Below are positions 15,897 to 31,486 of a stretch of 59,318 bases of DNA, piece by piece (positions within the stretch are counted from its first letter, which is position 1; every line of letters begins with the position of its first letter). Origin of the DNA: a virus (taxonomy: Duplodnaviria; Caudoviricetes); IMG/VR virus record IMGVR_UViG_3300023174_000187, positions 1 to 59,318 of that record. The stretch is one strand, 5' to 3'. The position numbers were made by a program, and so were the translations under genes. The notes beneath the pieces are model-generated. The model was given only the letters and a program-made list of their open reading frames with translations, ran no database searches and was not told the origin of the DNA.

Positions 15897-16448
15897 ATGG
15901 CTTTTGACCTTTCACAATACGAATTAGTTGAAGATAGAATTCGCGCCTTTTGGGAAAAGTACCCAAATGGTCGCTTGATTACAGATGTAAAATTCCACAC
16001 TCGCGATAATGGTGCAATTGTTTGGACTTGTTACTCAATGTTGTTTATTGACAAAGAAGATGCGCGTCCAACTACGACGGGTTTTGCTATGGAAGTTGAA
16101 GGTTCAACTAATGTCAATAAATACAGCGCAGCGGAAAATTGTGAGACTTCTAGCCTCGGTCGCTGTTTAGCCAATTTCTTGTTTGCAGCAAAAGGCAAGA
16201 GAGCCTCAGAATCCGAAATGAAAAAGGTCAAGCGAATGACCGATGAAGAAAAAGCACCAAAAGTTCCAGTTGTGTATCAGGACGCAAAACCATTCTTTGA
16301 CGCTCTTGAAGTAAGCGACACGATTGAAAGTCTCGAAGTCGTTCGCAACAAAATCACCGAGAATCGTGCAAAACTCGCGCCCGCAGATTTAGACGCACTG
16401 CGCAATGTTTATGACGCGAGAAAGGTTGCTATTGAAGCCACGCTATGA
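15897..16448 (+). CDS. Putative ssDNA-annealing recombinase (Rad52/Sak-like)
   Basis: Y..V..RI..F...YP.G; ENCETSSLGRCLA; start placed at the ATG after GGGAG. Confidence 0.55.
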   Translation: MAFDLSQYELVEDRIRAFWEKYPNGRLITDVKFHTRDNGAIVWTCYSMLFIDKEDARPTTTGFAMEVEGSTNVNKYSAAENCETSSLGRCLANFLFAAKGKRASESEMKKVKRMTDEEKAPKVPVVYQDAKPFFDALEVSDTIESLEVVRNKITENRAKLAPADLDALRNVYDARKVAIEATL

Positions 16449-17191
16449 GTATCCGACTTATGACGCAAGTATGGGAGTTAGACCTTCCTCTTGCGGATAA
16501 GATGGTGCTTCTTGTTATTGCCGACCATGCTTCTGATGACGGCACTAATAGTTATCCATCTGTAGGGACTATTGCTAGAAAGTCCTCCATGTCCTCAAGA
16601 AATGTTCAACGGTGTTTGTCGCGCCTTGAAGGTCAAGGCTTGATTTCTGTTGCTAGGCAACAAGGTGGTCCCGCTTACTATGACCCGAGCAGGAGACCTA
16701 ATGCCTACACAATAAACGGGGCGACATTCAGTCACCTCACTATTGAACGGGGTGACCCACAGTCATCCCGCGGGGCGACAATAGAGACAGCACCCCCTGA
16801 CGGTATGTCACCCAAACCATCAATAGAACCATTAGTAGAACCATCCATTATTAGTGTCCCCAACAAGTATTCAGAAATTTGGGGAACAGCGGAAGATTTG
16901 GCGAATTACCTTGCGGACAAAATCGAAGGCAATGGTTCAAAGCGTCCATCCGTAACACATGATTGGATTCTTACTATGGCGCGGTTGGTGGATATTGACC
17001 AGCGGACTCCCGAACAGGTTCGCAGTGCAGTTGATTGGTGTCAAGCGGACGACTTTTGGGCGGGGAATATCCTCAGTCCGATGGCACTCCGAAAACAGTA
17101 CGAAAGGTTGCGATTACAAGCGACCCGAAAGAAAAAAGGCAAAACAGGCGTATCCGCCGTCATGGACTATTTATCGGAGGTGCAGGAATGA
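16445..17191 (+). CDS. Replication initiator with N-terminal wHTH
   Basis: KMVLLVIADHA...SYPSVGTIARK..MS.RNVQR; C-terminal DDFWAGNILSP..LRKQY. Confidence 0.8.
   Translation: MSIRLMTQVWELDLPLADKMVLLVIADHASDDGTNSYPSVGTIARKSSMSSRNVQRCLSRLEGQGLISVARQQGGPAYYDPSRRPNAYTINGATFSHLTIERGDPQSSRGATIETAPPDGMSPKPSIEPLVEPSIISVPNKYSEIWGTAEDLANYLADKIEGNGSKRPSVTHDWILTMARLVDIDQRTPEQVRSAVDWCQADDFWAGNILSPMALRKQYERLRLQATRKKKGKTGVSAVMDYLSEVQE
16717..16813. repeat. Putative origin iterons inside the initiator gene
   Basis: Four GGGGYGAC-N5-GTCAY-like units at about 16717, 16748, 16771 and 16795. Confidence 0.55.
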
Positions 17192-17706
17192 ATCAAAAAG
17201 AAGCAGCGTCACTCGTCGGAGCATTAGCAGCGGGTTATCCACAATGGCAGGTCACAAAAGAAACCGTCGCAGTTTGGGCGGATTTGATGTCCGACCTCGA
17301 CTATACGGAAACTCGAACAGTTGTTCGAGAATGGTTGTTGACGGAAGATAGACCGCCAAGTCCCGCAGCCATCCGTCGCGCCATCGCAGGGAGTAGGGGT
17401 ATAACAGCCCCCAGTAGGGCTACGGCGTGGGCGGAGGTGCAGTTGGGTATTTCGACCTCAGAATCCAACCGCAGACCCGCATTTAGCCATCCAGCCATTT
17501 CTAAAGCAGTTGAAACAATCGGATGGTGGGAAATTCGGACAAGCACAAATCTCGATACCTTGCGCTCGCAATTTTGGAAGGTGTATGACGAGTACGCCCA
17601 AGAAGCCGACAAGCAAGCATTGACTTCTCAACAATTGTCATTGGGCGGAAGGGAGCGTCAAGCAATTGTCGGAATTCAGACCAGTCCCGAAACCTCCCAA
17701 GCGTGA
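17188..17706 (+). CDS. Helicase loader/inhibitor (G39P-like)
   Basis: MNQKEA..L...L...YP; W..L..DLDY; PPSPA.IR; AW.EV; start at ATGA overlap 17188. Confidence 0.7.
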   Translation: MNQKEAASLVGALAAGYPQWQVTKETVAVWADLMSDLDYTETRTVVREWLLTEDRPPSPAAIRRAIAGSRGITAPSRATAWAEVQLGISTSESNRRPAFSHPAISKAVETIGWWEIRTSTNLDTLRSQFWKVYDEYAQEADKQALTSQQLSLGGRERQAIVGIQTSPETSQA

Positions 17707-18052
17707 AAAAAAAATTCAAAAGCGAATTCGCCCAAAGTCAAAAAAATTAGTCAAGAAAGACGAGGTTTGGGCAGATGTTAGACAAATCGTCCTTGTTCGC
17801 GATGGATTCAAATGCGTCGCTCAGGTTAGTCAGTATTGTACAAAGAACGGAGAACACATCCATCATCTTCTCAGAAGGTCAGCGGGTGGAAGCCATGACC
17901 CTGACAATCTCATATCGTTATGTGCAGCGTGTCACGGATGGGTTCACGAACACCCTGCCGAGTCGCGAGCGCGAGGATGGCTTGTTTCCCGCTACGGTGT
18001 AGAGCGTGGAGACATGGACGGTGGAGTATCGGGAACGAGCATGGACGACTAA
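17666..18052 (+). CDS. HNH endonuclease
   Basis: RDGFKC...HHLLRRSAGG.H...NL..LCAACH..VH. Confidence 0.85.
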   Translation: MSEFRPVPKPPKREKKIQKRIRPKSKKLVKKDEVWADVRQIVLVRDGFKCVAQVSQYCTKNGEHIHHLLRRSAGGSHDPDNLISLCAACHGWVHEHPAESRARGWLVSRYGVERGDMDGGVSGTSMDD

Positions 18053-18368
18053 CGCCGAACGCAGTGGCAACAAATGGGAGCGAGCAAAACTTACAAAAAA
18101 ATGGCGCACAGATTTTGCAACGCTAGGTAAGTTTCACAAAGCCCCTAAATTTCAATGGGTTGACATAGTTGTAGATTTGACACTCAAAGGTCCATTGCAA
18201 GACACGGGTTCTTGCTTCCCCTCGGTAAAAGCAGCAGTTGATGGATTAGTTGATATTGGGATGTTGATTGATGACTCCCCGCAGTTTGTTCATTCGCTTT
18301 GCTTCACCGCTCCGACGCGCTCAAAAGAAAACATGATTCGATTGACCTTTACAGGTCCACTGCGGTAA
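18006..18368 (+). CDS. RusA-like Holliday junction resolvase
   Basis: D......KAAVDGLVD.G...DDS. Confidence 0.7.
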   Translation: METWTVEYRERAWTTNAERSGNKWERAKLTKKWRTDFATLGKFHKAPKFQWVDIVVDLTLKGPLQDTGSCFPSVKAAVDGLVDIGMLIDDSPQFVHSLCFTAPTRSKENMIRLTFTGPLR

Positions 18369-18407
18369 GTTTGGAAACCTAACCCCAGTTGAATAAAAGG
18401 AGATGAC

Positions 18408-18686
18408 ATGGCGCGGGCGCACAGGAAAAAGTTACCCCTAACGCCCGAACAGGTAGTTGAAAACGAAGGTTTGCTAAATGCTATTTCGGACGCAACAGAA
18501 GCAATTAGGTCAAGTCAAGAAACAATTCTCAACGCTTCAAATTTTAGAAGTCAACAAGTTTTAGAAGCAAGAAAAAACGGGATTTCATATCGCGCCATCG
18601 CTCAGGCAATGGGTACAAGTGAGCAGACCGTGTACAAAATTATCCAACCCCACTTAGTCAAAAAGGAGCAAGTAAATGATTTGTAA
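18408..18686 (+). CDS. HTH DNA-binding protein
   Basis: GISYRAIAQAMGTSEQTVYKI. Confidence 0.8.
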   Translation: MARAHRKKLPLTPEQVVENEGLLNAISDATEAIRSSQETILNASNFRSQQVLEARKNGISYRAIAQAMGTSEQTVYKIIQPHLVKKEQVNDL

Positions 18687-18834
18687 ATCTTGCATGGAAG
18701 GTGGCAAGGCTAACCGCGATGGAGATATTGAAAAAGCAATGAATTTTCATAGCGAGTGCGAATTCAAAGATTGTTGTTGTCAACACAAGACCAACACGGT
18801 TCACACAGAATCAGGAATCCACTTTTCATCGTGA
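18676..18834 (+). CDS. Small Cys/His-rich protein (not in ORF track)
   Basis: MICKSC...H..C..KDCCCQH; AAGGAG RBS. Confidence 0.6.
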   Translation: MICKSCMEGGKANRDGDIEKAMNFHSECEFKDCCCQHKTNTVHTESGIHFSS

Positions 18835-20066
18835 AATCAATCATTGCAGGAGCGCAAACAGTTGCGGTAGCGGAGTTACGCGAATTTCCGAATAACCCCC
18901 GCCGAGGTGATGTTGAATTGATTATGGAGTCTTTGTCTTACCACGGTCAATATCGCCCAATTGTTGCTAATCGCCGAACCAAAGAAGTATTGGCGGGATG
19001 GCACACGCTCATGGCTGCAAGAAAACTCGGATGGCAAAACATCCAAGTCACATGGATTGATGTTGACCCAATAACCGCCAAGCGCATAGTTCTAGCGGAT
19101 AACCGCATGAGCGACCTTGCTAGTTATGACGACACAGCATTGTTAGACCTTTTGATGTTGTTGAGTGACTTAGAAGGCACGGGTTTCAATAAAGATGATT
19201 TGTTGAAACTTGAAGCAATAGTTACAGGTGAAATTGAAGATGAGTTACTAAACCCAAAAGAACCAGTTGAACAAACCAAAGATGAAGATTTCAAAATCAA
19301 GGTAAAAATTGGAAAGTTCAAATGGGAAGTTGAGTATGACCCATTCTTTATGTGGAAAACAGATTTGTTGGCTCAACACATGGATTCAAAAGAACGCGTT
19401 GGTTATGAATTACGCGAGATGTTAGGTTTCCCGCCTCCTGAACCAAAACCAGCAAGAGTCAAAGGTTCAGAAATTGGTGCAGACGCAGTTATCAATGTTG
19501 AACAAGTTCCAGTTATCGCACTCAAACCTTTAGCGGGAAATGCGCGAACAGGTGACATCGGCGCAATCACCCAAAGTCTCATGACATTCGGACAATACCG
19601 ACCAGTTGTTGCTCGCCGTGATGGAACAATTCTTGTTGGTAATCACACAGTAGAAGCAGCCCGCGCCCTCAAATGGGAAAAGGTTTCCGTTGTATGGCTA
19701 GATGTTGATGACGAAGAAGCAATCCGAATCGCCATAGTTGATAATCGAACAACAGATATGGCAGGATATAACGCAGAAAATCTAAAATTGTTGTTGTCCG
19801 AAGTGAATGATTATTCAGGTACAGGATTTAGTCAAGAAGATGTAAGTGAAATTTACGCTGGTGGTTCAACAAAGCCAGGACATAGAACAGGAACACAAAT
19901 CTCCATTGAAATTGGAGAATTTAGATTTCGAGTAACTAAATCCGTTTGGGATGAATGGCGGAAACAGTTGCCCGAAAATTATGTAGAAGTAGAGTTGATA
20001 AAGCGACTCGAACTTCCACTCGGCGCGTGTTGGAAAGGACTGGACAAGGTGAGTACAAATGGCTGA
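18831..20066 (+). CDS. Protein with two tandem ParB/Srx-like domains
   Basis: Twice the pattern N.R.GD...I..SL...GQYRP.V.....L.G.HT..AA...DNR; GTG start overlapping the upstream TGA. Confidence 0.85.
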   Translation: MKSIIAGAQTVAVAELREFPNNPRRGDVELIMESLSYHGQYRPIVANRRTKEVLAGWHTLMAARKLGWQNIQVTWIDVDPITAKRIVLADNRMSDLASYDDTALLDLLMLLSDLEGTGFNKDDLLKLEAIVTGEIEDELLNPKEPVEQTKDEDFKIKVKIGKFKWEVEYDPFFMWKTDLLAQHMDSKERVGYELREMLGFPPPEPKPARVKGSEIGADAVINVEQVPVIALKPLAGNARTGDIGAITQSLMTFGQYRPVVARRDGTILVGNHTVEAARALKWEKVSVVWLDVDDEEAIRIAIVDNRTTDMAGYNAENLKLLLSEVNDYSGTGFSQEDVSEIYAGGSTKPGHRTGTQISIEIGEFRFRVTKSVWDEWRKQLPENYVEVELIKRLELPLGACWKGLDKVSTNG

Positions 20067-20706
20067 TATAGACCCAATGAAAGTGGAGGTTGTAACTTTA
20101 GACAAGTTGCACCTAGACCCACAAAATGCTCGAAAAGGTAATGTTCAGGCAATCGCGGAATCATTGCGAGAGTTTGGTCAACACCGAGCAATTATCGCTC
20201 AAAAAAACACAGGCAGAATCATTTCGGGCAATCACACATTCTTGGCAGCCCAGTCTTTAGGTTGGAATTCTGTGAATGTGTTTTGGGTTGACGACGACGA
20301 TGAAAAAGCCTTGCGTCGCGGTCTTGCCGATAATGCAGTAGGCGACCAAGCAAAATGGGACGATGACGCGCTTCGCAAGTTGCTCAACGAAACAGGCACA
20401 GATGTTCCTGGACTCGACGCTGCTCAGGTTGCAAAACTTTACAAAGACATTGAAGAAACAATTCCGAAGGAAGCAATTTATCCACTTTTGGCAAAGCCAG
20501 GAGAATATTACGATTATGTAATGTTCTTCACGGAGTCAGAATTGGATTCATTATTTATTCGCTCATTGTTTGATGGTAAATGGGTTTGTTGGAAGGCTGA
20601 AAAGCGTCCAGCGTCTTGGTCTCATATGCTCCCAGTATCCGAACTCCGTAAAGTGTTTGAAGCACACGGAATAGTCCCTGAAATGAAACAACTAGATGAA
20701 GCGTAA
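20059..20706 (+). CDS. ParB/Srx-like domain protein
   Basis: NARKGN..AI.ESL.EFGQ, IISGNHT, LADN. Confidence 0.85.
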   Translation: MADIDPMKVEVVTLDKLHLDPQNARKGNVQAIAESLREFGQHRAIIAQKNTGRIISGNHTFLAAQSLGWNSVNVFWVDDDDEKALRRGLADNAVGDQAKWDDDALRKLLNETGTDVPGLDAAQVAKLYKDIEETIPKEAIYPLLAKPGEYYDYVMFFTESELDSLFIRSLFDGKWVCWKAEKRPASWSHMLPVSELRKVFEAHGIVPEMKQLDEA

Positions 20707-21478
20707 AAAAGATGAAATTGCCATTGTCGTTCCGTCAATGGGCAGACCTGATTTGCTCAGTACTCATAAGGTTTTCTTGCCCGAGCGTCTTGATATTTGC
20801 GTACCTGACTCGGAAATAGAAAAATATAAAAAGGCTCATCCCGACCTCAAAATTGTTGGACACCCTGACAGCGTTCATGGAATTTCCGCCAAGCGTCAAT
20901 GGATTTACGAAACCTACGGCGATGTAGTCATGATTGATGACGACATCGGCAAAGTTGCTTGTCTTGAATATGCAGTAGGAGAAAAGGCTAGAAACCTTGA
21001 CCCAACAGCAGCAACAGGTTTGTGCGACCGCCTAGCAGAAGAAACCCGCCAATTTGGTGCGTATTTGTTCGGAGTATCAGCAAGCGCAGTTCCTCATTAC
21101 TATGTATCAGGTTTGCCATATCGCACTTGGGGATGGGTAAACGGAGGCTTCACAGGACTTCTCAAGGGTTCAAAGTTGGCTTACAATCCCGAAATCGCCT
21201 CATCCGAGGACTATTGGATTTCAGCCATGAACGCTTACCATCATCGCAAGTGTTTGATTGATACCCGATACGCCTTAGTAGATGTTTCAGGCAGTGGGAC
21301 AATGAAAACTAAAGGGGGGATGGCTTATACTCGCAGTCTTGAACGAGAAAGTCGAGACATAGAAATTCTTCAAAGATTCTTTGGAGATGCAATCAAGCGT
21401 CGCGGTCGTATGGGCGTAGCGCACCAATTACACGAACACCAAAAGATGTTGGAGATACCGTGGGCGAAGATGAACTAA
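20696..21478 (+). CDS. GT-A glycosyltransferase, TAGT/GREB1-like
   Basis: IVVPSMGR, KRQWI, MIDDDI (DxD), EDY, GG motifs. Confidence 0.7.
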   Translation: MKRKKDEIAIVVPSMGRPDLLSTHKVFLPERLDICVPDSEIEKYKKAHPDLKIVGHPDSVHGISAKRQWIYETYGDVVMIDDDIGKVACLEYAVGEKARNLDPTAATGLCDRLAEETRQFGAYLFGVSASAVPHYYVSGLPYRTWGWVNGGFTGLLKGSKLAYNPEIASSEDYWISAMNAYHHRKCLIDTRYALVDVSGSGTMKTKGGMAYTRSLERESRDIEILQRFFGDAIKRRGRMGVAHQLHEHQKMLEIPWAKMN

Positions 21479-22092
21479 GTTTCAAAAATTTTTACGCTGA
21501 GATGATGGAAAAAGCAAAAGAATGGCATGAAGTCAATGGATGGGGTTCGCGTCGCTCTCAATACCGCCGTTATACAAACGCGCAAGAAATGTTGAGCGTT
21601 AGAAACGGAGATTGCGTAATTGATATTGGAAGCGGGTCAGGGGAACTATCCCAATTCTTTTGGGAAAAAGGAATTGATGTTTGCTACCACGGAGTAGATG
21701 TAATGGAAGATATGGTCGCTATTGCTAAAGATAGGCACGGCGACAAATTCCAAGTGTGGGATATTTTTGAAAAGCCAATTGATTTCCGAACCGATTGGGC
21801 TATTGGTATCGGAACAGTTGGTGCGCTCGCAACAAAAGACATTGACAAAAGATGGGAACAGTTAGCAATATTTCTTCAAAATATGTCCGCTACAACTGAC
21901 AAGGGTTTTGTATTCACAATGTTGACTGATAGAAATGAACACAATGAAGTTGACGACCATCATTGGTTCGTTGACCCAAGTGTGGCTATTGCTAATGTTC
22001 TCGACATGATTCCACCGTATATGGGCATACAAATCCGAATGGATTACCACCCACACGAAATGATGTTTGCGGTAAAGCGTGAAACTTTTTAG
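21460..22092 (+). CDS. Class I SAM-dependent methyltransferase
   Basis: GWGS..SQ..R; VIDIGSGSG; YHGVDV. Confidence 0.8.
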   Translation: MGEDELSFKNFYAEMMEKAKEWHEVNGWGSRRSQYRRYTNAQEMLSVRNGDCVIDIGSGSGELSQFFWEKGIDVCYHGVDVMEDMVAIAKDRHGDKFQVWDIFEKPIDFRTDWAIGIGTVGALATKDIDKRWEQLAIFLQNMSATTDKGFVFTMLTDRNEHNEVDDHHWFVDPSVAIANVLDMIPPYMGIQIRMDYHPHEMMFAVKRETF

Positions 22093-22157
22093 CGACACGC
22101 CTTTACATCAAATGTTTGGACAGTTATAGTCGCACCATAAATACAAACAAAGGGAGG
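22092..22157 (+). promoter_or_regulatory. Promoter with upstream GACAC (WhiA-type) motif and RBS
   Basis: GCGACACGCC 22092, TTTACA-17-TATAGT, AGGGAGG 22151. Confidence 0.6.
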
Positions 22158-22164
22158 CAGTAAA

Positions 22165-22785
22165 ATTTCATTCAATTCAATTCCAACCGTCCGCGGATAT
22201 TCAGCAGGAGAAGTTACATCCGCGCTTCAAAAAGCAATTCGACGCTCCGACGACGAGCAAGCCGTATTTTGGGCGGTCGAAATGGACAGGTCAGGTTATG
22301 GTCAATATATGTGGCGACGACTTCTTATCATGGTTTCAGAAGATATCGGACTCGCCAATCCCGAACTTCCCCAACAGATTTGGAGTCTTTATTCGACTTA
22401 CAAAGAATTGCTTGCGTGGAAAAATCGCAATCACCCCGAACGCCTTCAAATTGTTCATGCTGTGCTTTTGATGGCTCGTTCGCCTAAATCTCGTATGGTT
22501 GACCATTGCACTCATGTTGCTTATACGACAAACGACACAATCCCGATTCCCGACGAAGCCTTATGTATGCACACTGGTCGCGGTCGTATGCAAGGTCGCG
22601 GACTCGACCATTGGTACAGCGACGCAGCAACGCTCGTCAACGGTCTCGATTTAGATGACAAGTGGGAAGCAAAATCCCGCGAACTCGCCTACCATCCACC
22701 AAGCGCAAAACCAGCAGAACGGTCATCCAAGAAAAATGAATTCTCCGACCCTGAGGAAGAAGAAGAAACAGTCCTTCCCTTCTAA
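22165..22785 (+). CDS. Standalone MgsA/RarA C-terminal-like domain, probable ATT start
   Basis: SALQKAIRRSD...AVFW...WRRLLIMVSEDIGLANP; homology extends upstream of the first ATG (22282). Confidence 0.75.
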   Translation: MSFNSIPTVRGYSAGEVTSALQKAIRRSDDEQAVFWAVEMDRSGYGQYMWRRLLIMVSEDIGLANPELPQQIWSLYSTYKELLAWKNRNHPERLQIVHAVLLMARSPKSRMVDHCTHVAYTTNDTIPIPDEALCMHTGRGRMQGRGLDHWYSDAATLVNGLDLDDKWEAKSRELAYHPPSAKPAERSSKKNEFSDPEEEEETVLPF

Positions 22786-23501
22786 GCGTTGCCAGTAGAA
22801 ATCAAATTGCGGGTTGCTTCCCATCCTTGATAAAAGATGGAGTCAAGGACGCTTAGGTTCGGAGTCCAGTTGTATTTGTGTTGTTTGTATGGCGCACAAG
22901 TCCAGTTTTGGGTAACTAACTCAATTCCAGCGTCAGTCCATTCTTGTAAGTCCATGTAGTTTAGAGACGGCGCACCTGTCACCATGCGGGTCGCGCCTAT
23001 CTCTTTGCATAGGTCAAGAATCCAACCCCCCTTATCCCTTTGTTTAGGTTGGAACTCGGTGTCCCGATATATGTGAGACCAAAGCGCAAGATTCTTGTGC
23101 GCCCATCTAAAAGAAGTCTCGCTTAGGTCGCCTAAAGATGTATCCTTCTCCATAATGCGAGTAACCGATTCAATGGTTTCTTCAAAAAACGGAGCGGATT
23201 TGTAACGAAATGTTATCTGAGACAAAAGTTTGCTCCTCCAATCACCTTTGCCTAGAGGCGTATCGCAAAGCGGTTGTAACTCCTTCCCTACTGATAGGGC
23301 TAACCAGTCAGGCTCTTGATTTCCACCAAGACGGATGTGCTTCATGCCCGTTACTTTCTTTGCTCCGTTTGTATCGGGCGAGGTTGCAGTAAATTGCGCC
23401 GTAGTTAGAAGAATCACCGCGTCAGATTGAGCAGCCCGCGCATAAATGTTGAGGGTTGAAAACGGTGATGGTTGGAATATCGTTACAGTTAGACCAGCCA
23501 T
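22782..23501 (-). CDS. WbqC-like protein
   Basis: IFQP.PF, Y.SAPFF, LCK.IGAT, Y.Q...W.PNLSVLD. Confidence 0.8.
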   Translation of the reverse strand: MAGLTVTIFQPSPFSTLNIYARAAQSDAVILLTTAQFTATSPDTNGAKKVTGMKHIRLGGNQEPDWLALSVGKELQPLCDTPLGKGDWRSKLLSQITFRYKSAPFFEETIESVTRIMEKDTSLGDLSETSFRWAHKNLALWSHIYRDTEFQPKQRDKGGWILDLCKEIGATRMVTGAPSLNYMDLQEWTDAGIELVTQNWTCAPYKQHKYNWTPNLSVLDSIFYQGWEATRNLISTGNA

Positions 23502-24169
23502 CGTCGAACCTCATAAGCCTCTGCTAAGGGAACGCCCGCTTGCGCACCTCTCAATACAGCCAAAGCCCTAAGTGCTTCAACAGAACGCTCAGATGGATGT
23601 GGTCGGTCTTGGGATATATGGGAACGCATTGCTTGGCACTTTCGTTCAATGTCAACTTCATCTAAAGAAACATACAAAATCGGATGGTGTTGTTCAGTCT
23701 CTAGCGTCCAGTAGTCAGAAGGTTCTTCATAGACAGCGACAATAGGCGGACGGAAATTGAATGTGCCTCCATTTGGTCGCAAAGCAGCGAGCGCAGCAGC
23801 GGAAATCGCACGATGGTCTTGATGAAACCCTCCAGGCTCAGGCATGATTACCATGTCAGGGGTAAACAGTTGAATGTGCTTCTCAATGTCAGTAATGATT
23901 TCTTTCATAGGGATAGTGTCTAAATCCCCATCGGTGTCGTTGTAAAGATATTCATAATCAATTCGACCGTCCCAGTCATCTAAGACAGCAAGACCTTGAA
24001 TCGCTTCTAGTTTGCGCATATCGTTTGGCATTGAACCGTAAATAACTAAAGCGTCAGACTTCTCTCTAGCAAGACGAGAGAGTAATCCACCCGCACCAAG
24101 AATTTCGTCGTCAGGGTGTGGAGCAAGAATCATTATCCGCTTAGGCAAAAAAGAATTATTGAAAATCAT
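23489..24169 (-). CDS. PIG-L/LmbE family de-N-acetylase
   Basis: APHPDDE.LG.GG, HQDH, H.SQ, AEAY. Confidence 0.9.
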   Translation of the reverse strand: MIFNNSFLPKRIMILAPHPDDEILGAGGLLSRLAREKSDALVIYGSMPNDMRKLEAIQGLAVLDDWDGRIDYEYLYNDTDGDLDTIPMKEIITDIEKHIQLFTPDMVIMPEPGGFHQDHRAISAAALAALRPNGGTFNFRPPIVAVYEEPSDYWTLETEQHHPILYVSLDEVDIERKCQAMRSHISQDRPHPSERSVEALRALAVLRGAQAGVPLAEAYEVRRWLV

Positions 24170-24216
24170 CGTTTAGCAACCCCCAGTTAGGAAATAAGGG
24201 GTACAGTATCAGCACT

Positions 24217-24705
24217 ATGGGAAGAAAAACTAGACTTACAGCAGAGATTCAACAACAAATTGTTTCCTCGATTAGTTCAGGCAATTGGCAAGAGGTTGCT
24301 TGTGAATATGCAGGGATTCATGTGGCAACTTACTACCGATGGTTAGAACGCGGTCAAGTTGAGATTAGTCGCCTTGAAGGGGACGAAGAAGCAGAACCGA
24401 ATGACGAGGAAACTCCATATCGCGAGTTTTGCGAGGCAGTACGGAAAGCGCAAGCGGTATCTGAGGTTCAAGCAGTAGGCTTGATTCGTAAAGCAGCGAT
24501 TGACGGGTCATGGCAAGCAGCGGGATGGTACTTGGAACGCTCTCACCCAAAGCGATGGTCAAAAGTTGATAAACTCGAACACACAGGTCGCGAAGGCGCA
24601 CCAATTCAGTTGAGTGTTTCAGTCGGAGATTTAGAAAAAGAAATCGAAGCGTTATTGGAAGGAAGCCGTGGAACTACTAGAGATGATGATGAAGGCAACG
24701 CCTGA
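24217..24705 (+). CDS. Terminase small subunit
   Basis: MGRKT.LT, HTH AGI...TYYRW, WQAAGWYLER, EHTG..G.PI. Confidence 0.85.
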   Translation: MGRKTRLTAEIQQQIVSSISSGNWQEVACEYAGIHVATYYRWLERGQVEISRLEGDEEAEPNDEETPYREFCEAVRKAQAVSEVQAVGLIRKAAIDGSWQAAGWYLERSHPKRWSKVDKLEHTGREGAPIQLSVSVGDLEKEIEALLEGSRGTTRDDDEGNA

Positions 24706-26275
24706 TGAGCGTCGCTATGTCTTATCTAAGTTAGACCCCGAAAAGCGCATTGCGCTGAAACAAATCCTTGACAATCACAAAAGTAACCCGTGGGCGCAAT
24801 ATGAAAAAGACCCAGTTGCGTTTATCGAAAAAGGATTAGGCGAAACACTTTGGTCTAAACAGCGAGAGATTCTTGTATCGCTTAGGGACAACAAAAGAAC
24901 AGCAGTCCCCGCTTGTCACGCTCCAGGAAAATCATTTATTGCAGCAAGAGCGGTTGCGTGGTGGGTTTCATCTCACCCCGCGGGAACGGCTCAAGTAGTT
25001 ACAACAGCGACAACCTTTAGACAGGTTCGTAACATCCTTTGGAATGAAGTACGCAAGGTTGCAACAAAACATAATTTGCCAGGAGAAGTTATGTCCGTCG
25101 AATGGCAATTAGCGGGCGGAATTGTTGCTTACGGACTTTCATCAGGTGCTAATAACGAGGCTTCAATTCAAGGTATCCATGCTCCCCATCTTTTAGTTGT
25201 TGTTGATGAAGCGGGTGGTATTCCCACAAGTACAGGTCAGGCACTAGAAGCCTTGATGACAGGTGACCACACTCGACTATTGGCTATTGGTAACCCAAGT
25301 ACAGATTCAGACTCAACTTGGTTCGAGCGCATTTGTCATTCAGATTTATACAATGTCATAAAGATTTCAGCCTATGACACTCCAGCATTTACGGGCGAAG
25401 AAACAGGTTGGTGTCACTCATGCCCGCCAATGGCTTCACCCCATAAAGTAGAGACACACTTAGTAGATAAAAGTTGGGTAGAAGATGTTCTCAAAGAATA
25501 CGGAGCGGAGTCGCCGTTCGCAGAAGCAAGAATCAATGCCCGATTCCCTAAGACTTTTGCCAATCGCGTTATACCTCTCTCATGGGCGGAAGAAGCGGTC
25601 AACAATGAAAGTCCTGCGGAAAGTCCTTATGTTAGGTTGGGCGTTGATATCGCTTCCGATGGTGGCGATGAAATGGTGGTGGCAAGGGCGGATGGATTCC
25701 GAGTATCAATTGTTCATAAGTCAAGTGGAGCAGAAAACCAAAACGCCGTAGATGTAGCGCGAGTAATTCTCCAAGAAATCAAAAAAGCCGAACATATCCA
25801 CGCCACTAGAAAGTTGACCGCACCAGTTGTCGTAAAGATTGACGCAATTGGTGTTGGTTGGGGCGTTACTTCATTGCTACAGACTTGGTTTCAAGAAGGT
25901 AAGCACAAATCAACAATCGTCCCAGTCAAGGTTGGCGAACGAGCAGTTGACGCAGGTAAGTTTGTAAATCAACGCGCAGAAATGTGGTGGAACGGTCGCG
26001 AGTTACTCGAATCAATAACAGATTCGCTTGGAAATGTCTCTCAACAGTTGCGCTTAGATGTAGATACTAAAACCATCGCTCAATTGGGTTCACCTGCTTA
26101 CAAGTCCGATACAAGCGGACGAATAGCAATCGAAAAGAAAACGGAAATGAAAGGTCGCGGTGTAAGTTCCCCTGACCGCGCAGAAGCAGTTTTATTGGCT
26201 ATCTATGAACCAAAGCGTCAAATGCACATGGAAATTCCTGTATCATTTGTGCAAGCGAACGAATGGAGTATGTAA
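24668..26275 (+). CDS. Terminase large subunit
   Basis: Walker A PGKS, Walker B VVVDEA, IGNP coupling motif, LGVDIA and SPDRAEA nuclease motifs. Confidence 0.95.
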   Translation: MELLEMMMKATPDERRYVLSKLDPEKRIALKQILDNHKSNPWAQYEKDPVAFIEKGLGETLWSKQREILVSLRDNKRTAVPACHAPGKSFIAARAVAWWVSSHPAGTAQVVTTATTFRQVRNILWNEVRKVATKHNLPGEVMSVEWQLAGGIVAYGLSSGANNEASIQGIHAPHLLVVVDEAGGIPTSTGQALEALMTGDHTRLLAIGNPSTDSDSTWFERICHSDLYNVIKISAYDTPAFTGEETGWCHSCPPMASPHKVETHLVDKSWVEDVLKEYGAESPFAEARINARFPKTFANRVIPLSWAEEAVNNESPAESPYVRLGVDIASDGGDEMVVARADGFRVSIVHKSSGAENQNAVDVARVILQEIKKAEHIHATRKLTAPVVVKIDAIGVGWGVTSLLQTWFQEGKHKSTIVPVKVGERAVDAGKFVNQRAEMWWNGRELLESITDSLGNVSQQLRLDVDTKTIAQLGSPAYKSDTSGRIAIEKKTEMKGRGVSSPDRAEAVLLAIYEPKRQMHMEIPVSFVQANEWSM

Positions 26276-26787
26276 TGGCAAAAAAAGGTTCAGCGGCTCT
26301 ATTAGTAGAAATAGCGACCGCAGAAATTGGTTATATCGAGGAAGCAGTTCCCGAAAACAAGACTAAGTACCAAAAGGCTAATCAAGCATGGTGCGGAGCG
26401 TTCGTAAATTGGTGCGGGAAAAAAGCAGGGGTCAAAATTCCCAACACTGTTTACACACCAGCAGGGGCAGATGCTTTCAAAAAGGCTAAATCTTGGCTTG
26501 AGGGTGAGGGTTGCGAGCCAACAACGGGAGACATCGTGTATTTCGATTTTCCATCAGACGGCGTTGACCGAATCTCCCATGTAGGTATTGTTGTAAAGAA
26601 CAACGGAGATGGCACGGTTACTACCATCGAAGGCAATACTGCTCCCGACAAAAAGGGAGACCAGCGCAACGGTGGCGAAGTATGTCTCAAGGTTCGCGCT
26701 TACAAGAAAAAGAACGGCTCAAAATGGCGCAAGTCTCAAGCGGTTTCAATCGTAGGTTTTGGTCGTCCAAAATTCACAGCAGTTTAG
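26275..26787 (+). CDS. Endolysin, CHAP-type
   Basis: WCGAFVNW, GDIVYFD, SHVGIV, TIEGNT, GFGRP. Confidence 0.9.
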   Translation: MAKKGSAALLVEIATAEIGYIEEAVPENKTKYQKANQAWCGAFVNWCGKKAGVKIPNTVYTPAGADAFKKAKSWLEGEGCEPTTGDIVYFDFPSDGVDRISHVGIVVKNNGDGTVTTIEGNTAPDKKGDQRNGGEVCLKVRAYKKKNGSKWRKSQAVSIVGFGRPKFTAV

Positions 26788-26822
26788 TCTTGACAATGTA
26801 ACAAGAACGATTAGAGTACGGA

Positions 26823-26906
26823 TTACAACTAAGGCGTAGGGCTACATCTAAGTTGGTTATTTGTAAAAGACTCTCACTGACGGGGAAGCGGTGGGGGTCT
26901 TTTGCA
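26823..26906 (+). ncRNA. Candidate small RNA of about 85 nt
   Basis: TTGACA-16-TAGAGT promoter; hairpin 26826-26855; 17-bp terminator stem 26863-26905; no RBS/ORF. Confidence 0.45.
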
Positions 26907-27014
26907 TTTCTGAAAACATAGTGTCAAATCGTGCAAAACAATTGTTATGACGGCGTGTTTGCCGTTCACCCTCTCTTGTAAATGTTTGCTAAGGGCAATT
27001 CTCAAACCCCCGTT

Positions 27015-27066
27015 TGGTAGAATAGTGCTATGCGGAAAACATCCGATAGTCAAATAGTCAGGGAGG
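27015..27066 (+). promoter_or_regulatory. Early-type promoter/leader without the CRP box
   Basis: TGgTAGAAT; CGGAAAACATCCG hairpin shared with 29941; AGGGAGG. Confidence 0.6.
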
Positions 27067-27070
27067 CTAT

Positions 27071-27190
27071 ATGAACCGACAGGTAATTTGCGATATATGT
27101 AATAAAGAATGGTATCCAAAATCAGGGGGAATGGTTTACGAAAGTTTGAACCGACACATCAAAATAGAACACAGGGAGGAAACAAATTGA
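27071..27190 (+). CDS. Small C2H2 zinc-finger protein (not in ORF track)
   Basis: MNRQVICDICNKEW...SLNRHIKIEH; strong RBS. Confidence 0.7.
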   Translation: MNRQVICDICNKEWYPKSGGMVYESLNRHIKIEHREETN

Positions 27191-27798
27191 GCGCAGACAA
27201 CCAGCGGAGTAAGGTATATGCCGCAGAAGGCGTAGTTCGAAATTGTAGGTCAAAGTTAGGGCGAAAAATGCTCATTCCACAAAAGACCGAGGAAATAGTC
27301 AAATCAGACGGCAGTATCGCAACGATTGCTCGAGTTCCAGCCAGCACAGCACAATGTAAGGCGTATATGGAAAAGATAGTCACTTATGAATGGTTCACTT
27401 CGAGGTGGCACATTTCTACCCCCAGTTATATCGAGGGTAATGCGCCAAATGTTGGAGATGGGCGAGCGCGACGCAAGGCTTGTTGGGATGCGAGCGTCTA
27501 TGAAATCAAACTTCCCCATTGGGCGAGAACCGAAGCCGTGATACTTCACGAGATGGCTCATTGGATAGTAGATAAAGCCACAGTGCCAAGAGAAGATGGG
27601 CGGGGCTTTTGGATTAGGCAGTATGACCCCGACCATGCAGCACATGGTAAGGAGTTCGCAGCGGTGCTTCTCGAATTAGTCCGATTGCAACTCGGAGCAG
27701 AGGCAACGAAGGCACTCAAAGCCTCCTACAAGGCGAACCGCGTCAGGAGGGATAAACAACCTCAGCCAATCCACCGAAAGGCGGTAATGGTCGCCTAG
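27187..27798 (+). CDS. Zincin metallopeptidase, TIGR04338-like
   Basis: DNQRSKVYAAE, VILHEMAH, HGKEF; TTG start after GGGAGG. Confidence 0.75.
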   Translation: MSADNQRSKVYAAEGVVRNCRSKLGRKMLIPQKTEEIVKSDGSIATIARVPASTAQCKAYMEKIVTYEWFTSRWHISTPSYIEGNAPNVGDGRARRKACWDASVYEIKLPHWARTEAVILHEMAHWIVDKATVPREDGRGFWIRQYDPDHAAHGKEFAAVLLELVRLQLGAEATKALKASYKANRVRRDKQPQPIHRKAVMVA

Positions 27799-27822
27799 TC
27801 CTAAATGTGGGAGGATTCGGCT

Positions 27823-28377
27823 ATGACCACAATAGTTGCAGTCCAGTTAGATAACAAGGTGGTATTCGGCGCAGATAGTCAAGTAACAGCACCTAATGGA
27901 CGACGATTCAGTCACCCGCAGATGGTCAAAATTAGCAAGGTCGGTCAATACTTAGTTGCAGGTTCAGGTGAATGTGCGCCTTGCGATATTGCACAGCATC
28001 TTTGGATTCCACCTAAGCCACTAACCGCAGATTGGGATGACCTTTATCATTTTATGATTTCAAAAGTAGTTCCATCGTTGAAGGCTTGTTTCAAAGATAA
28101 TGAATACAAGTGGAATGAATCAGATGATGACGAAAGCAAGTTTTCATTTCTCATTGCTATTGGGGGAGAAGTTTTTGAATTAGCGGATGATATGTCTATT
28201 ACTCTTGACGAGCGTGGTTACTATGGAGTAGGAAGTGGTTCAAGTTATGCCATCGGTGCTTTGTATGCAGGAGCAACAATCGGAGAAGCACTAAAGATAG
28301 CCTCATCCAATGATGTTTATACAAGTGAGCCGTTCATGTTTCAAGAACAGGTGAAAAGAAAAAAACGCGTGGTCTAA
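27823..28377 (+). CDS. Ntn-hydrolase, proteasome-beta/HslV-like peptidase
   Basis: MTTIVAV...GADSQVT; GSGSSYAIGAL; D.YTS. Confidence 0.85.
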   Translation: MTTIVAVQLDNKVVFGADSQVTAPNGRRFSHPQMVKISKVGQYLVAGSGECAPCDIAQHLWIPPKPLTADWDDLYHFMISKVVPSLKACFKDNEYKWNESDDDESKFSFLIAIGGEVFELADDMSITLDERGYYGVGSGSSYAIGALYAGATIGEALKIASSNDVYTSEPFMFQEQVKRKKRVV

Positions 28378-28465
28378 ATCACATAAACAAATTGTCTAAC
28401 TAATTGACTTCAAGTATGCAGGTGGCATGATTTGTCTTGTCGGAATCGCCGATTCCACAGGGAGG
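28368..28465 (+). promoter_or_regulatory. Early promoter cassette 1
   Basis: CGTGG-N6-TCACA; TTGACT 28404; TGgCATGAT; hairpin GGAATC/GATTCC; AGGGAGG. Confidence 0.8.
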
Positions 28466-28470
28466 CAAAA

Positions 28471-28920
28471 ATGCAAAACGAATTACAGGTACGAATCAAT
28501 AGTTACGCAGACGCGCTAACTCAACAGTTCCACGCTAACAACGGCGAATGGGCGCAAAGACGCAAGTTCATCGCACAAACCCCAAAGGGTTCACAGAAGT
28601 ACATCCGAATCGTCGAGGATGATGGTAATGGTCGCGGAGCGTCAGTACATTGCTTCATCAACTTAGAAACAGGTGGAGTTCACAAGTCAGCCAGTTGGCA
28701 ATCACCAGCCCGAGGTCGTGACGGCAAAGTTTATCCAGCAAAGTTCAATTTGCTAGATGATGAATCATTCGCAGCGTTGCTTTACAACCTTGAAAGTTGT
28801 GGCGGGTATCTATACGCAGATTACAAAATAAGAAAACCGTTAGTTGATAACGGAGTCACATTGTTAGATTCCGCAAAGTACATGGCTTCATTCGTTCCCG
28901 AGATGGGGGAGTCAATCTAA
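28471..28920 (+). CDS. Hypothetical early protein
   Basis: Start follows the cassette RBS; KYIRIV..SVHCFI...G.V.K.ASW..PA. Confidence 0.75.
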   Translation: MQNELQVRINSYADALTQQFHANNGEWAQRRKFIAQTPKGSQKYIRIVEDDGNGRGASVHCFINLETGGVHKSASWQSPARGRDGKVYPAKFNLLDDESFAALLYNLESCGGYLYADYKIRKPLVDNGVTLLDSAKYMASFVPEMGESI

Positions 28921-29288
28921 TGAAAACAAAAATCACAGTAGGTTGGGTCGCGTTTGCCCACCAAGCAGAATCGCTCAAAGCAGCAGGTCGAATCCCCGAT
29001 GCAAAGTTGACATTTGAAACCGAGATTCCACCAGCAATGTTTGATACAGAAATTCTCGAATTGTTATTCGAGCAGACAAACCTTTATGCGGGCGATGTTT
29101 GGGAAAAACATTTCAAGGACAAGATGCCCGAGAATCGCAGTCACACCGCGCTATCAGTAGGAGATTGCGTGACTATCGAAAGAAACGAAGATAAAAGCAT
29201 TTACATTTGCTTGGATATGGGTTGGGAGTTGCTCGCGTTTAGTAATGCGTGGGTGGACGAAGTTACTCGACTCAAGGCGGTCAAATAA
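28920..29288 (+). CDS. YodL-like domain protein
   Basis: E.LF...N...P...H..LSVGD.V...GW. Confidence 0.55.
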   Translation: MKTKITVGWVAFAHQAESLKAAGRIPDAKLTFETEIPPAMFDTEILELLFEQTNLYAGDVWEKHFKDKMPENRSHTALSVGDCVTIERNEDKSIYICLDMGWELLAFSNAWVDEVTRLKAVK

Positions 29289-29651
29289 TGGCAAAGAAGC
29301 ATTGGTATTTAGTGACAATGATTGCTGAAAAAACAGTTCGCGTTTATGCAGAAGATGAACAAGATGCAAAAGATAAAGCAGATGCAAAACATCAACCATT
29401 GTGGAACGCAGAAACAGCGGATATAGAAGGAAGATGGGGAAAAAGAAATGGCTAAACCTCTAGTTAGTTCCGTCAAAGAATGGTTCGTGGAGTTCGATTC
29501 AGACTTGGTAAAGGTCGAATGGGACGGAAACGACTATTGGCGGGTAAAACCCTCAGGAAAGCGAGCGCAATACTTCTACGGAGAATCCGCATGGATGGAT
29601 GCAAGGCGGACAGCAGCGGATATTGACTTCAAAGCGTGGAGTATCGCTTGA
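29288..29651 (+). CDS. Two small hypothetical genes (29288-29455, 29448-29651)
   Basis: Translationally coupled ORFs. Confidence 0.6.
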
Positions 29652-29867
29652 TTGCGTATGTAGTAATAGGGTTAGTTCTTTTTATGGATTTTGTAGCAAT
29701 ATGTTTAGCGATTTACGGACTAGGAATGGCGAAAGGTTGGTGGGAATAATGACAATCAAACAAGTCAAGTTCGATTTGTGCGAGATATGCGAATCCAATC
29801 CAAAAGAAAACCCTGAGGGCAAATGGTGTACCTCATGCAAAGATGATTTCAAAGAAAGCGACGATTA

Positions 29868-29969
29868 GGTGACCTAAATCACACAATCATTTAGTCAAAA
29901 CATTTGACTATTTAGTTGGTGGTGGAAGAATAAGTCTTGTCGGAAAACATCCGATATTAGTCAGGGAGG
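29868..29969 (+). promoter_or_regulatory. Early promoter cassette 2
   Basis: GGTGA-N6-TCACA; TTGACT 29904; TGgAAGAAT; hairpin TCGGA/TCCGA; AGGGAGG. Confidence 0.8.
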
Positions 29970-29974
29970 CTAAG

Positions 29975-30220
29975 ATGGAAAACTCACTTCACAAGCAAGC
30001 ACTAAAAGCATATAAATCGCTAGTTTTGATTGCAGCAAAAAACAAGGCGGGCGAACTTCAATTCGCGTCAGACATTCAGGCACAAGCCTTTGCTATCTCT
30101 TACAAAGACTTGCGCGAAATGCTCGACTATGTAGCAACAGGCGACGAAGATATCGTGCGCAAGATTTACGCAAAGAAAATTGTTGAACGCTCTAAGTATT
30201 GGGTCGAAAAGGTAGCGTAA
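29975..30220 (+). CDS. Hypothetical early protein
   Basis: Follows the cassette RBS. Confidence 0.75.
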   Translation: MENSLHKQALKAYKSLVLIAAKNKAGELQFASDIQAQAFAISYKDLREMLDYVATGDEDIVRKIYAKKIVERSKYWVEKVA

Positions 30221-31384: not shown

Positions 31385-31388
31385 AACG

Positions 31389-31486
31389 CGTGACGCAAAT
31401 CACACAAACTTTATAGCAAAACATTTGACAACACACGCGCAGAATGGAAATGTAGGACTTGTCGGAAAACCAACGCCTAAGGGAGG
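31389..31486 (+). promoter_or_regulatory. Early promoter cassette 3
   Basis: CGTGA-N6-TCACA; TTGACA 31425; TGgAAATGT; AGGGAGG. Confidence 0.8.

Follow-up and report, generated by a model that had tools for sequence, protein, structure and literature searches.

A recurrent ParB-glycosyltransferase-MgsA_C gene core in tailed phages and its possible part in DNA glycosylation with bacillithiol-like tailoring

What does a glycosyltransferase modify in a phage genome that encodes no recognisable enzyme to provide DNA with an acceptor atom? This question arises from a compact block of seven genes at positions 18831-24169 of a single IMG/VR virus record (IMGVR_UViG_3300023174_000187, Caudoviricetes; 59,318 bases; CheckV completeness 98%; no terminal repeats found), which we analysed over its whole length and refer to as the window. 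According to open reading frames (ORFs) and their Pfam and PHROG assignments, the block lies between replication/recombination genes and terminase genes. A first-pass annotation, made from the letters and translated ORFs of the window, had listed here three ParB/Srx domains in two genes, a glycosyltransferase (GT) of the TAGT family, an S-adenosylmethionine (SAM) methyltransferase and an inverted pair of PIG-L deacetylase and WbqC genes directly before the terminase genes TerS and TerL. PHROG and Pfam place the three ParB domains in a double and a single ParB gene, and the other genes were likewise found where they had been described. The list was incomplete, however, as a homologue of the MgsA/RarA C-terminal half in the same interval had been overlooked. 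The block contains:

18831-20066, plus strand: double ParB/Srx protein with two nucleotide-binding-type domains and a GTG start (PHROG 8071, Pfam ParB_N)
20059-20706, plus strand: single ParB-like protein, core gene (PHROG 620, E 7.4e-31)
20696-21478, plus strand: TAGT-family GT-A glycosyltransferase, core gene (Pfam PF20691, PHROG 842)
21460-22092, plus strand: class I SAM methyltransferase of small-molecule type, accessory gene (Methyltransf_25)
22102-22130, plus strand: putative sigma-70-like promoter match (TTTACA-17-TATAGT, 10/12)
22165-22785, plus strand: standalone MgsA/RarA C-terminal homologue (MgsA_C-like), core gene (PF12002, E 3.1e-12)
22782-23501, minus strand: WbqC-family protein, accessory gene (PF08889, E 1.8e-31)
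23489-24169, minus strand: PIG-L/LmbE-family de-N-acetylase, accessory gene (PF02585, E 4.6e-16)

ParB, GT and MgsA_C form the usual core of such loci, and this core stands ahead of several unrelated terminase types. As its function, we tentatively favour ParB-assisted, post-replicative glycosylation of phage DNA with optional bacillithiol-like tailoring, a reading that falls somewhat short of being probable. DNA would be the target, as the linkage to ParB and the precedent of the GT family suggest.

Conservation of the core was assessed from both of its ends. Of the 114 homologues of the GT, 113 carry PF20691 as a precomputed assignment. A scan of viral contigs with the GT (alignment of 36 homologues) gave 125 pattern matches, 101 of which were confirmed; the best 80 of these and the window make up the viral survey set of 81 loci. 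Locus genes were called greedily and clustered, and presence was re-checked by tblastn with all cluster members. ParB was present in 80/81 and the MgsA_C-like gene in 79/81 viral loci. In this co-occurrence survey, which had been suggested as a check on the locus, the complete triad was present wherever the flanks of the GT reached 2.5 kb or more upstream and 7 kb or more downstream (46/46 loci). It precedes at least three different TerL clusters, i.e., cluster a in 32, cluster b in 29 and Terminase_3 in 8 of the 81 loci. The other genes were less frequent, with PIG-L in 31, WbqC in 26, the double ParB in 12, the SAM methyltransferase in 9 and an ATP-grasp ligase in 5 viral loci. The reciprocal scan from the MgsA_C-like protein gave at least 580 matches, of which 555 were confirmed and the best 80 kept; after removal of 22 duplicates, 47 new loci were obtained and the GT was found in 40 of them. 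Six of the seven GT-less loci had less than 2 kb of upstream sequence, yet one (L208) lacked the GT despite 4.9 kb upstream. This set comprises the 80 most similar MgsA_C relatives, and remoter ones may have other contexts.

Bacterial genomes contained 48 loci with the GT pattern, mainly in prophages of Cytophagales (Hymenobacter, Runella, Larkinella, Fibrella, Flectobacillus and, with five copies, Arundinibacter); the loci outside this order were in single metagenome-assembled genomes labelled Janthinobacterium, Rhodanobacter and Prevotella. ParB was present in 46/48 of these loci and MgsA_C in 38/40 of those with enough flank. Culturable, non-pathogenic strains with the triad include Runella defluvii DSM 17976, Hymenobacter sp. 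BRD67 and Arundinibacter roseus DMA-K-7a. The five copies of the last are separate loci (L107-L110, L114), which suggests many related prophages in one strain. Only three cultured-phage records matched the GT, at 23-27% identity, and two of them, Streptococcus phage Javan291 and Clostridium phage CS266P4, have the order ParB-like gene, GT, small gene, TerL, without MgsA_C. ParB-GT is the oldest pair of the module. The seven genes, which had been taken as one set, thus fall into a conserved ParB-GT-MgsA_C core, a mobile accessory pair of PIG-L and WbqC, and a methyltransferase that is rarer still.

The assignment of the GT rests on profile and structure matches to the TAGT family, a family that, like the ParB-terminase association, reportedly goes back to ideas of Iyer et al. 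2013 (NAR). Pfam TAGT (PF20691) scored 38.4 bits against a cut-off of 27.5, aligning residues 9-89 only, and PHROG 842, named beta-glucosyl-HMC-alpha-glucosyl-transferase (HMC, hydroxymethylcytosine), matched over the full length (E 1.1e-22). The AF2 model (pLDDT 93.3) has a GT-A fold with the DxD motif in the form DDD, and D81-D83 are invariant in the alignment. Compared with BFVD, the model matched viral TAGT proteins with query TM-scores (TMq) of 0.70-0.80 and E values down to 1.9e-15; one of these matches also carries the name beta-glucosyl-HMC-alpha-glucosyl-transferase (E 3.2e-14, TMq 0.72). The GT profile found no match among PDB sequences. Fused or longer forms of the GT were absent at E ≤1e-5 among proteins of 456-2000 aa, which is weak evidence. 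The median pI of the GT family was 8.2 compared with 6.5 for all neighbouring genes. Related GTs of TET phages transfer N-acetylglucosamine (GlcNAc) or glucose to 5-hydroxymethylcytosine (5hmC) in DNA (Burke 2021, PMC8256090).

In the double ParB, PHROG 8071 matched residues 33-424 of the 436-aa ORF starting at 18756 (E 7.8e-91), with PHROG 723 on residues 33-176 and PHROG 620 on residues 246-369, and Pfam ParB_N reached 28.9 bits (cut-off 26.3). This gene is restricted to the clade of the window and one sister clade. The single ParB stayed below the Pfam cut-off (20.1 bits); its ParB_N and PHROG matches cover residues 7-137 and are followed in the alignment by some 80 conserved C-terminal residues, and Pfam found no helix-turn-helix (HTH) or other DNA-binding domain in it. 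The ParB domains also match PHROG 498, which is annotated as "DNA methyltransferase". Phage T-dioxygenases are activated on double-stranded DNA by ParBs that have a nucleotide-binding domain (NBD) and a C-terminal domain (CTD) but lack a DNA-binding domain (O'Toole 2026, PMC13229309), and the window ParB, with an NBD-type domain and a C-terminal block, may be of this kind. Its neighbour is the GT, however, and no 5mYOX dioxygenase was detectable in the window genome. One protein of 453 aa (P0052; a single record on a 3.9-Mb bacterial contig) reads as a ParB (residues 8-181) continued by a full-length GT, and its ParB part is 69% identical to that of locus L026; a genuine fusion is one possibility, a frameshift where the two genes overlap the other.

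The third core gene clearly encodes a homologue of the RarA/MgsA C-terminal half without the ATPase, as judged from its sequence matches: PF12002 scored 47.1 bits (cut-off 27), PDB entries 8g28 and 3pvs matched with E 8.4e-8 and 1.2e-4, and the protein of 206 aa (about 204 aa in kin) lacks the AAA+ ATPase module. The first ATG lies downstream of the sequence for its conserved N-terminus; the gene starts with an ATT at 22165-22167, nine codons after an in-frame stop. At this position, seven bases past the ribosome-binding site AGGGAGGC, five close relatives with the same ribosome-binding site have an ATG. A contig of 911 bases from a run of a different study (X2) spans 21859-22769 with zero differences, ATT included; the ATT thus cannot be put down to faulty assembly of a single sample, and it may mean low or regulated translation of the gene. 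The C-terminal tails of the MgsA_C-like proteins are variable and flexible. Nevertheless, a hydrophobic-aromatic pair stands among the ten terminal residues of 47 of the 62 distinct tails, and another 6 end in LPF, i.e., LF, LFD/E or LPF endings together account for 53/62 (L002-L088), whereas hydrophobic-aromatic endings occurred in 237/1392 other neighbourhood proteins (17%). In the window, the tail (22740-22785) is an acidic run ending in LPF, which we take, as a lead only, to resemble the C-terminal tip of single-stranded DNA-binding protein (SSB); 14/62 distinct tails have Qxx(L/M)F forms, presumably resembling beta-clamp-binding motifs, again as a lead only.

The accessory genes point to amino-sugar chemistry. 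PIG-L scored 59.9 bits with PF02585 (cut-off 28.2); its motifs AHPDDE and HxDH are intact, and P17, H18, D20, D21, E22 and H119 do not vary across 16 aligned sequences. Among solved structures, it is related to GlcNAc de-N-acetylases, i.e., diacetylchitobiose deacetylase (E 2.3e-9), teicoplanin deacetylase and BshB (6p2t, E 1.9e-3), and the family is that of BshB and MshB. PIG-L never occurred alone: in 31/31 viral loci it had a partner, which was WbqC in 26 and an ATP-grasp ligase (domains PF15632 and PylC-like_N) in 5 sister loci. WbqC without PIG-L was not found in the first survey, and the second set added 14 loci with both genes. Around the core, the pair takes three placements: on the strand of the core it lies either upstream of ParB or downstream of MgsA_C, and in the third arrangement, that of the window, it is downstream but inverted. 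It hence moves as a unit within the module.

PF08889 covers residues 20-231 of WbqC with 110.1 bits (cut-off 21.3). Where a Foldseek check of each gene had been proposed, the AlphaFold model of WbqC (pLDDT 89.9, 19-sequence alignment) gave BshC as the top match (E 1.3e-3, probability 0.96). Exhaustive VIA-align superposed 220/239 residues on BshC 4wbd_A (Z 15.4, rmsd 2.9 Å), ahead of class I lysyl-tRNA synthetase (Z 12.6) and glutamyl/glutaminyl-tRNA synthetases (Z 9-11), with glutamyl-queuosine tRNA synthetase also among the matches (Z 9.2). Sequence and profile searches against the PDB returned chance-level rows only, and BshC was absent from them at E ≤1 and at E ≤10. From the model, WbqC is predicted to be a BshC-like or class I aminoacyl-tRNA synthetase-like amino-acid ligase. 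BshC acts directly after the PIG-L-family enzyme BshB, as does MshC after MshB in mycothiol synthesis. The constant partnership with PIG-L and the exchange for an ATP-grasp carboxylate-amine ligase, which points to the same step, suggest that WbqC may ligate an amino acid to the glucosamine amine. GT, WbqC and PIG-L also co-occur independently with amino-acid activation in Streptomyces operons, where ProRSx, GT4, WbqC, LmbE, a special tRNA(Pro) and MurG stand together (PMC10404621).

The methyltransferase, located between GT and MgsA_C, was found only in loci with PIG-L and WbqC, i.e., in the 9 of the first set and in L149, L153 and L155 of the second. Its Methyltransf_25 match is marginal (27.2 bits, cut-off 27.0). 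The translation contains the SAM motif GxGxG as DIGSGSG, and no DPPY or PCQ motif of DNA methyltransferases was seen in it. The nearest solved chains, phosphoethanolamine N-methyltransferase and CouO, are of small-molecule N-/C-type and match weakly (E 1.6e-4 to 8e-4).

How might these proteins work together? The ParB-like protein may help the GT to act on double-stranded phage DNA, as ParB does with phage thymine dioxygenases, and the GT would move GlcNAc from UDP-GlcNAc; we infer this donor because PIG-L is the partner and related phage GTs use it. The ParB/GT gene overlap, the P0052 protein and the comparatively high pI of the GT family are weaker points in favour of this scheme. PIG-L would then remove the N-acetyl group, and the BshC-like WbqC, or in sister phages the ATP-grasp ligase, would join an amino acid to the freed 2-amino group. 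In the window's clade, the adduct would be methylated by the small-molecule-type SAM methyltransferase. The accessory chemistry would accordingly lead from GlcNAc to GlcN, N-aminoacyl-GlcN and a methylated product, an order that is supported by the likeness of the WbqC model to BshC and by the membership of PIG-L in the BshB family. More speculatively, the MgsA_C-like protein could be a scaffold or, via its acidic/hydrophobic-aromatic tail, a tether to replication proteins. Sugar transfer, de-N-acetylation, aminoacylation and methylation had all been proposed in the first-pass annotation, and the PIG-L motifs, the BshC-like model, the ATP-grasp swap and the Streptomyces operon (PMC10404621) speak for this chemistry. 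We do not retain its description as packaging-coupled, the sole basis of which was the gene position beside the terminase.

In this scheme, no recognisable TET/JBP dioxygenase or thymidylate-synthase-like hydroxylase would supply the acceptor atom on DNA. We tested PF12851, PF00303 and PF00145 on six frames of the record at E ≤0.1. Tet_JBP (PF12851) was absent from the window and 10 relatives (0/11 records, 7 of them at least 98% complete and 2 with terminal repeats); the control genomes gave none above the cut-off either, i.e., the model had no usable positive control, and divergent phage 5mYOX proteins can escape it (O'Toole 2026, PMC13229309). The thymidylate-synthase family (PF00303), which includes dCMP/dUMP hydroxymethylases and also covers 5-hydroxy-dCMP synthases (Lee 2026), was absent from the window and five complete relatives (0/6), with 10/14 control genomes positive. 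C5 DNA methylase (PF00145) was not found in the window genome, again with 10/14 control genomes positive. Pfam scans of 39 window ORFs of at least 141 aa also gave no thymidylate-synthase homologue, C5-methyltransferase or 2-oxoglutarate-dependent dioxygenase. The earlier statement that the genome lacks TET/JBP and dNMP hydroxymethylase enzymes is supported, also for the complete relatives.

These absences weigh against the favoured reading, as do the following points. To our knowledge, every characterised DNA glycosyltransferase needs a pre-installed hydroxyl, be it on 5hmC, 5-hydroxymethyluracil (5hmU) or 5-hydroxycytosine (5hoC), or on a sugar attached to one of these. No fourth gene common to all loci was found among the neighbour clusters of the viral loci. 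Among solved structures, the GT is closest to TarP and TarS (E 7.4e-6, TMq 0.44-0.50), which transfer GlcNAc to teichoic acid and are not DNA enzymes, and GREB1, a TAGT relative from animals, reportedly glycosylates a protein. At the position of GERR in chromosome-segregation ParBs, which is GHQR in most kin, the window ParB reads GNHT, and its nucleotide binding is therefore uncertain. Complex prediction of ParB and GT, with alignments built in this analysis as input, favours the reading but was rated no higher than "weak support": ipSAE was 0.56 (runs 0.55-0.57) with a best of 0.00 in three controls, at least 64% of contacts were shared between runs and partner pLDDT was at least 80. The ipSAE mark was reached by 58/80 solved complexes and 2/110 mismatched pairs, and at or below 0.60 lay only 7 of the 80 solved complexes and both mismatches that passed. 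In the second set, one locus (L194) had WbqC without a detected PIG-L. Finally, the sequencing runs are assembled (Logan) contigs of short-read metagenomes, which are uninformative on modification, ends or expression.

Several explanations can be set against this evidence. Glycosylation might proceed without prior base oxidation, GlcNAc being attached directly to a canonical base, the backbone or another acceptor and converted by the BshB/BshC-like pair to N-aminoacyl-glucosamine, with methylation in the window's clade; we consider this specific route somewhat unlikely. The classical alternative, glycosylation of 5-hydroxymethyl- or 5-hydroxy-pyrimidines made by an unrecognised hydroxylase (a divergent 5mYOX or another fold, supplied by phage or host), is quite unlikely in our view. 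Many contigs, thousands according to O'Toole 2026 (PMC13229309), that were found with phage 5mYOX profiles lack a Pfam TET/JBP annotation, and the window has ORFs of 165-314 aa without a Pfam match, e.g., 30199-30870, 31696-32640 and 47919-48551. In the relatives, C5 DNA methylase was 1 of 149 neighbour-cluster representatives; these were the ones scanned among 216, and as 25 of the 89 matched families were listed, a weak Tet_JBP may be among the rest. The DUF6065 protein at 710-1420, whose fold is unassigned, could also be such an enzyme. Its Pfam match is weak (E 2e-4), its Atlas matches are viral DUF6065 clusters only, and no PDB sequence matched. Against a hidden hydroxylase stands that the loci share no fourth gene, that neither PF12851 nor PF00303 matched any of the complete genomes tested, and that hypermodification genes normally cluster (Pyle 2023, bioRxiv 10.1101/2023.12.21.572611). 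DUF6065 itself was rejected as a conserved partner: it was present in one of five records (G003) and absent from G001, G002, G005 and G006, although G001 is a 100% complete relative with the full locus.

With a protein as target, the absent DNA acceptor would no longer be problematic: the GT would O-GlcNAcylate a phage or host protein, e.g., a virion protein, ParB or a packaging protein, and PIG-L, WbqC and the methyltransferase would tailor the protein-linked sugar. GREB1 is a precedent within the family, mycobacteriophage virions are glycosylated with sets of GTs and methyltransferases, and GT-A enzymes commonly act on proteins, POMGnT1 and ColGalT1 being among the further structural neighbours of the GT. 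The setting argues otherwise: a ParB-like protein is encoded in strict synteny with the GT, often together with a DNA N6-methyltransferase, and the GT adjoins replication/recombination and terminase genes outside the structural module (43-59 kb and 1-15 kb); moreover, the viral structures closest to it belong to TAGT proteins, one of which bears the name of a DNA glucosyltransferase. We therefore regard a protein target as unlikely. Very unlikely, to our judgement, is a small molecule or envelope polymer, that is, a bacillithiol- or mycothiol-like aminoacyl-glucosamine or the modification of a glycopolymer as by the prophage enzyme TarP. GT, PIG-L deacetylase and BshC-like ligase do follow bacillithiol/mycothiol logic, TarP and TarS lead the solved matches, and the Streptomyces GT4-WbqC-LmbE operon is apparently unrelated to DNA (PMC10404621). 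However, 50/81 loci contain the triad without PIG-L or ligase, so that the untailored sugar product itself must be useful; the TM-score to TarP is 0.44-0.47 compared with 0.7-0.8 to viral TAGT proteins; ParB and MgsA_C have no role in such pathways; and no integrase was found among the window ORFs scanned, which makes lysogenic conversion unlikely. ParB-assisted glycosylation of phage DNA hence remains the reading that we tentatively favour.

In the window, the module is flanked by the following genes, of which TerS and TerL are context outside the modification chemistry:

16445-17191, upstream of the module: O-like initiator
17666-18052, upstream of the module: HNH protein
18006-18368, upstream of the module: RusA
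18408-18686, upstream of the module: HTH protein
24217-24705, plus strand: TerS (PHROG 4102, E 2.3e-39)
24668-26275, plus strand: TerL (PHROG 2, E 6.8e-34)

Within the module, the first four genes overlap successively by 8, 11 and 19 nt, the 11 nt being the ParB/GT overlap, and the WbqC and PIG-L genes overlap by 13 nt. The promoter match at 22102-22130 sits in the sole sizeable gap of the plus-strand operon, a stretch that is conserved in close kin. Over 18300-24800, neither promoter matches (14 sites vs 10.1 ± 3.2 in shuffles) nor terminators (5 vs 6.3 ± 2.0) were enriched. No cultured phage record was matched by blastn with 18700-26300. The window is from a lake-water phage; its stretch was found at ≥99% identity in freshwater metagenome contigs of an independent study, and relatives at 90-95% identity in a lake-water run of a third study. 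No RNA run was listed among those containing it.

Tail genes lie at 9-15 kb, and portal, head-morphogenesis, large virion protein, major capsid protein and fibre genes at 43-59 kb. TerS/TerL and the portal gene are about 17 kb apart, and the interval between them (26276-43073) holds mostly small genes, along with a DUF7717 protein, a GP88-family protein and an SLT-domain protein. An endolysin-like gene (26263-26787) directly follows TerL; a PD-(D/E)XK exonuclease (38610-39416) and an SSB (42439-42864) are also located between TerL and portal. The head-morphogenesis block includes a ferritin-like gene (47362-47922; PF00210, E 9.9e-16). Amid tail and fibre genes, a sulfotransferase (1411-2253, minus strand), an APS-kinase/cytidylyltransferase-like gene (2300-3049) and the DUF6065 gene form a trio at 710-3049 that may be a sulfation cassette.

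Prophage-type loci (L017-L088, L091-L138) differ from the window in their additional genes. An N6_Mtase gene inside the module was found in 20/81 viral and 34/48 genome loci. Two extra co-conserved genes without a Pfam or PHROG match are absent from the window: c10 (about 224 aa) precedes ParB in 44/48 genome loci, and c6 (about 226 aa) occurs in 40/48, usually directly upstream of N6_Mtase. In these loci, cargo for defence and anti-defence accumulates in the slot between GT and MgsA_C (L039 10747-12658, L021 13059-13916, L032 8947-9822), i.e., an HNH and AAA_21/AAA_15 pair, an ArdC-N and MPTase-PolyVal protein, DUF932 and also Abi-like cargo. Slot genes were considered as tailoring enzymes and rejected, since the ten scanned were HNH, AAA_21/AAA_15, ArdC, DUF932, HSBP1 or without match, i.e., cargo; the HSBP1 match lay just under the E cut-off (E 9.5e-4) with 19.4 bits against a cut-off of 28.6 bits. 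The combination of N6 DNA methyltransferase, ArdC-like anti-restriction and Abi-like cargo is in keeping with an anti-restriction island where the late operon begins. Single neighbour representatives in the relatives were an NAD-dependent epimerase, a UDP-glucose/GDP-mannose dehydrogenase and Amidoligase_2 (E 1e-51 to 4e-34), which could be other sugar-tailoring variants.

Parts of this arrangement are already in print. Pyle 2023, Burke 2021 (PMC8256090) and O'Toole 2026 (PMC13229309) note GTs in the vicinity of ParB and terminase genes as well as contigs whose GT has no 5mYOX or ThyS beside it, and Pyle 2023 (bioRxiv 10.1101/2023.12.21.572611) puts the latter at about 65% of phage GT-containing contigs. 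In the literature, we found no description of the ParB-GT-MgsA_C triad as a unit, of the PIG-L and WbqC/ATP-grasp tailoring pair in phage modification loci, or of a BshC-like fold for WbqC; supplements may list TET-less ParB-GT contigs, deacetylase neighbours or such a fold. The module gives the TET-less GT gap a defined and recurrent form, a three-gene core at well over 100 loci from freshwater phages to prophages of culturable Cytophagales and of Firmicutes. If its target is DNA, it would entail new acceptor chemistry and extend the partner role of ParB from dioxygenases to glycosyltransferases. Direct glycosylation, if true, would amount to a chemically new class of DNA hypermodification, and the WbqC family (PF08889) would receive a functional assignment for the first time, that of an amino-acid ligase for amino sugars. 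DNA with an aminoacyl-glucosamine adduct would probably behave differently towards restriction, CRISPR and sequencing, which would be relevant to phage-host biology and enzyme tools. Whatever the target of the module, the fold match to BshC, the pairing with PIG-L and the replacement by ATP-grasp provide a biochemical hypothesis for the uncharacterised PF08889, which is also found in O-antigen clusters.

Among known systems, the phage TET/5mYOX-GT clusters (Burke 2021, PMC8256090; Pyle 2023, bioRxiv 10.1101/2023.12.21.572611) are similar in having a TAGT-type GT-A enzyme near ParB and terminase, and their related GTs use UDP-GlcNAc and act on DNA after replication. Unlike these clusters, the window genome has no C5-methyltransferase, 5mYOX or ThyA homologue; conversely, the available text of these papers does not mention PIG-L, WbqC/ATP-grasp or MgsA_C partners, and "deacetylase" occurs 0 times in the main text of Pyle 2023. 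The ParB-dependent thymine dioxygenases (O'Toole 2026, PMC13229309) work with a short ParB of NBD and CTD without a DNA-binding domain, placed beside a DNA-modifying enzyme and near terminase genes; the window ParB is similarly placed and may have a similar make-up. The partner is a dioxygenase there and a GT here, and GERR is replaced by GNHT in the window ParB.

The bacillithiol (BshA/BshB/BshC) and mycothiol (MshA/MshB/MshC) pathways have the order of steps proposed for the module, with GlcNAc transfer, PIG-L-family de-N-acetylation and ATP-dependent amino-acid ligation to the GlcN amine. BshA and MshA are GT-B enzymes (GT4), whereas the window GT is GT-A (TAGT), and BshC has 540 aa compared with 239 aa for WbqC, with no match between them in the PDB sequence and profile searches. 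The setting also differs, being a phage ParB/terminase locus with, probably, a polymer as acceptor. The beta-glucosyl-HMC-alpha-glucosyltransferase of T2/T6 belongs to the same PHROG 842 as the GT, a homologue so named matches structurally, and the T2/T6 enzyme acts on DNA. It extends, however, a glucose already present on 5hmC, and T-even phages make 5-hydroxymethyl-dCTP (hm-dCTP) by a pathway that is not present in the window genome. The Streptomyces ProRSx-GT4-WbqC-LmbE-tRNA(ProX)-MurG operon (PMC10404621), finally, resembles the module in combining a GT with WbqC and PIG-L/LmbE and in its link to amino-acid activation; it differs in its location on a bacterial chromosome, its dedicated aminoacyl-tRNA synthetase and tRNA and its GT4 enzyme, and no ParB or terminase is part of the operon as described.

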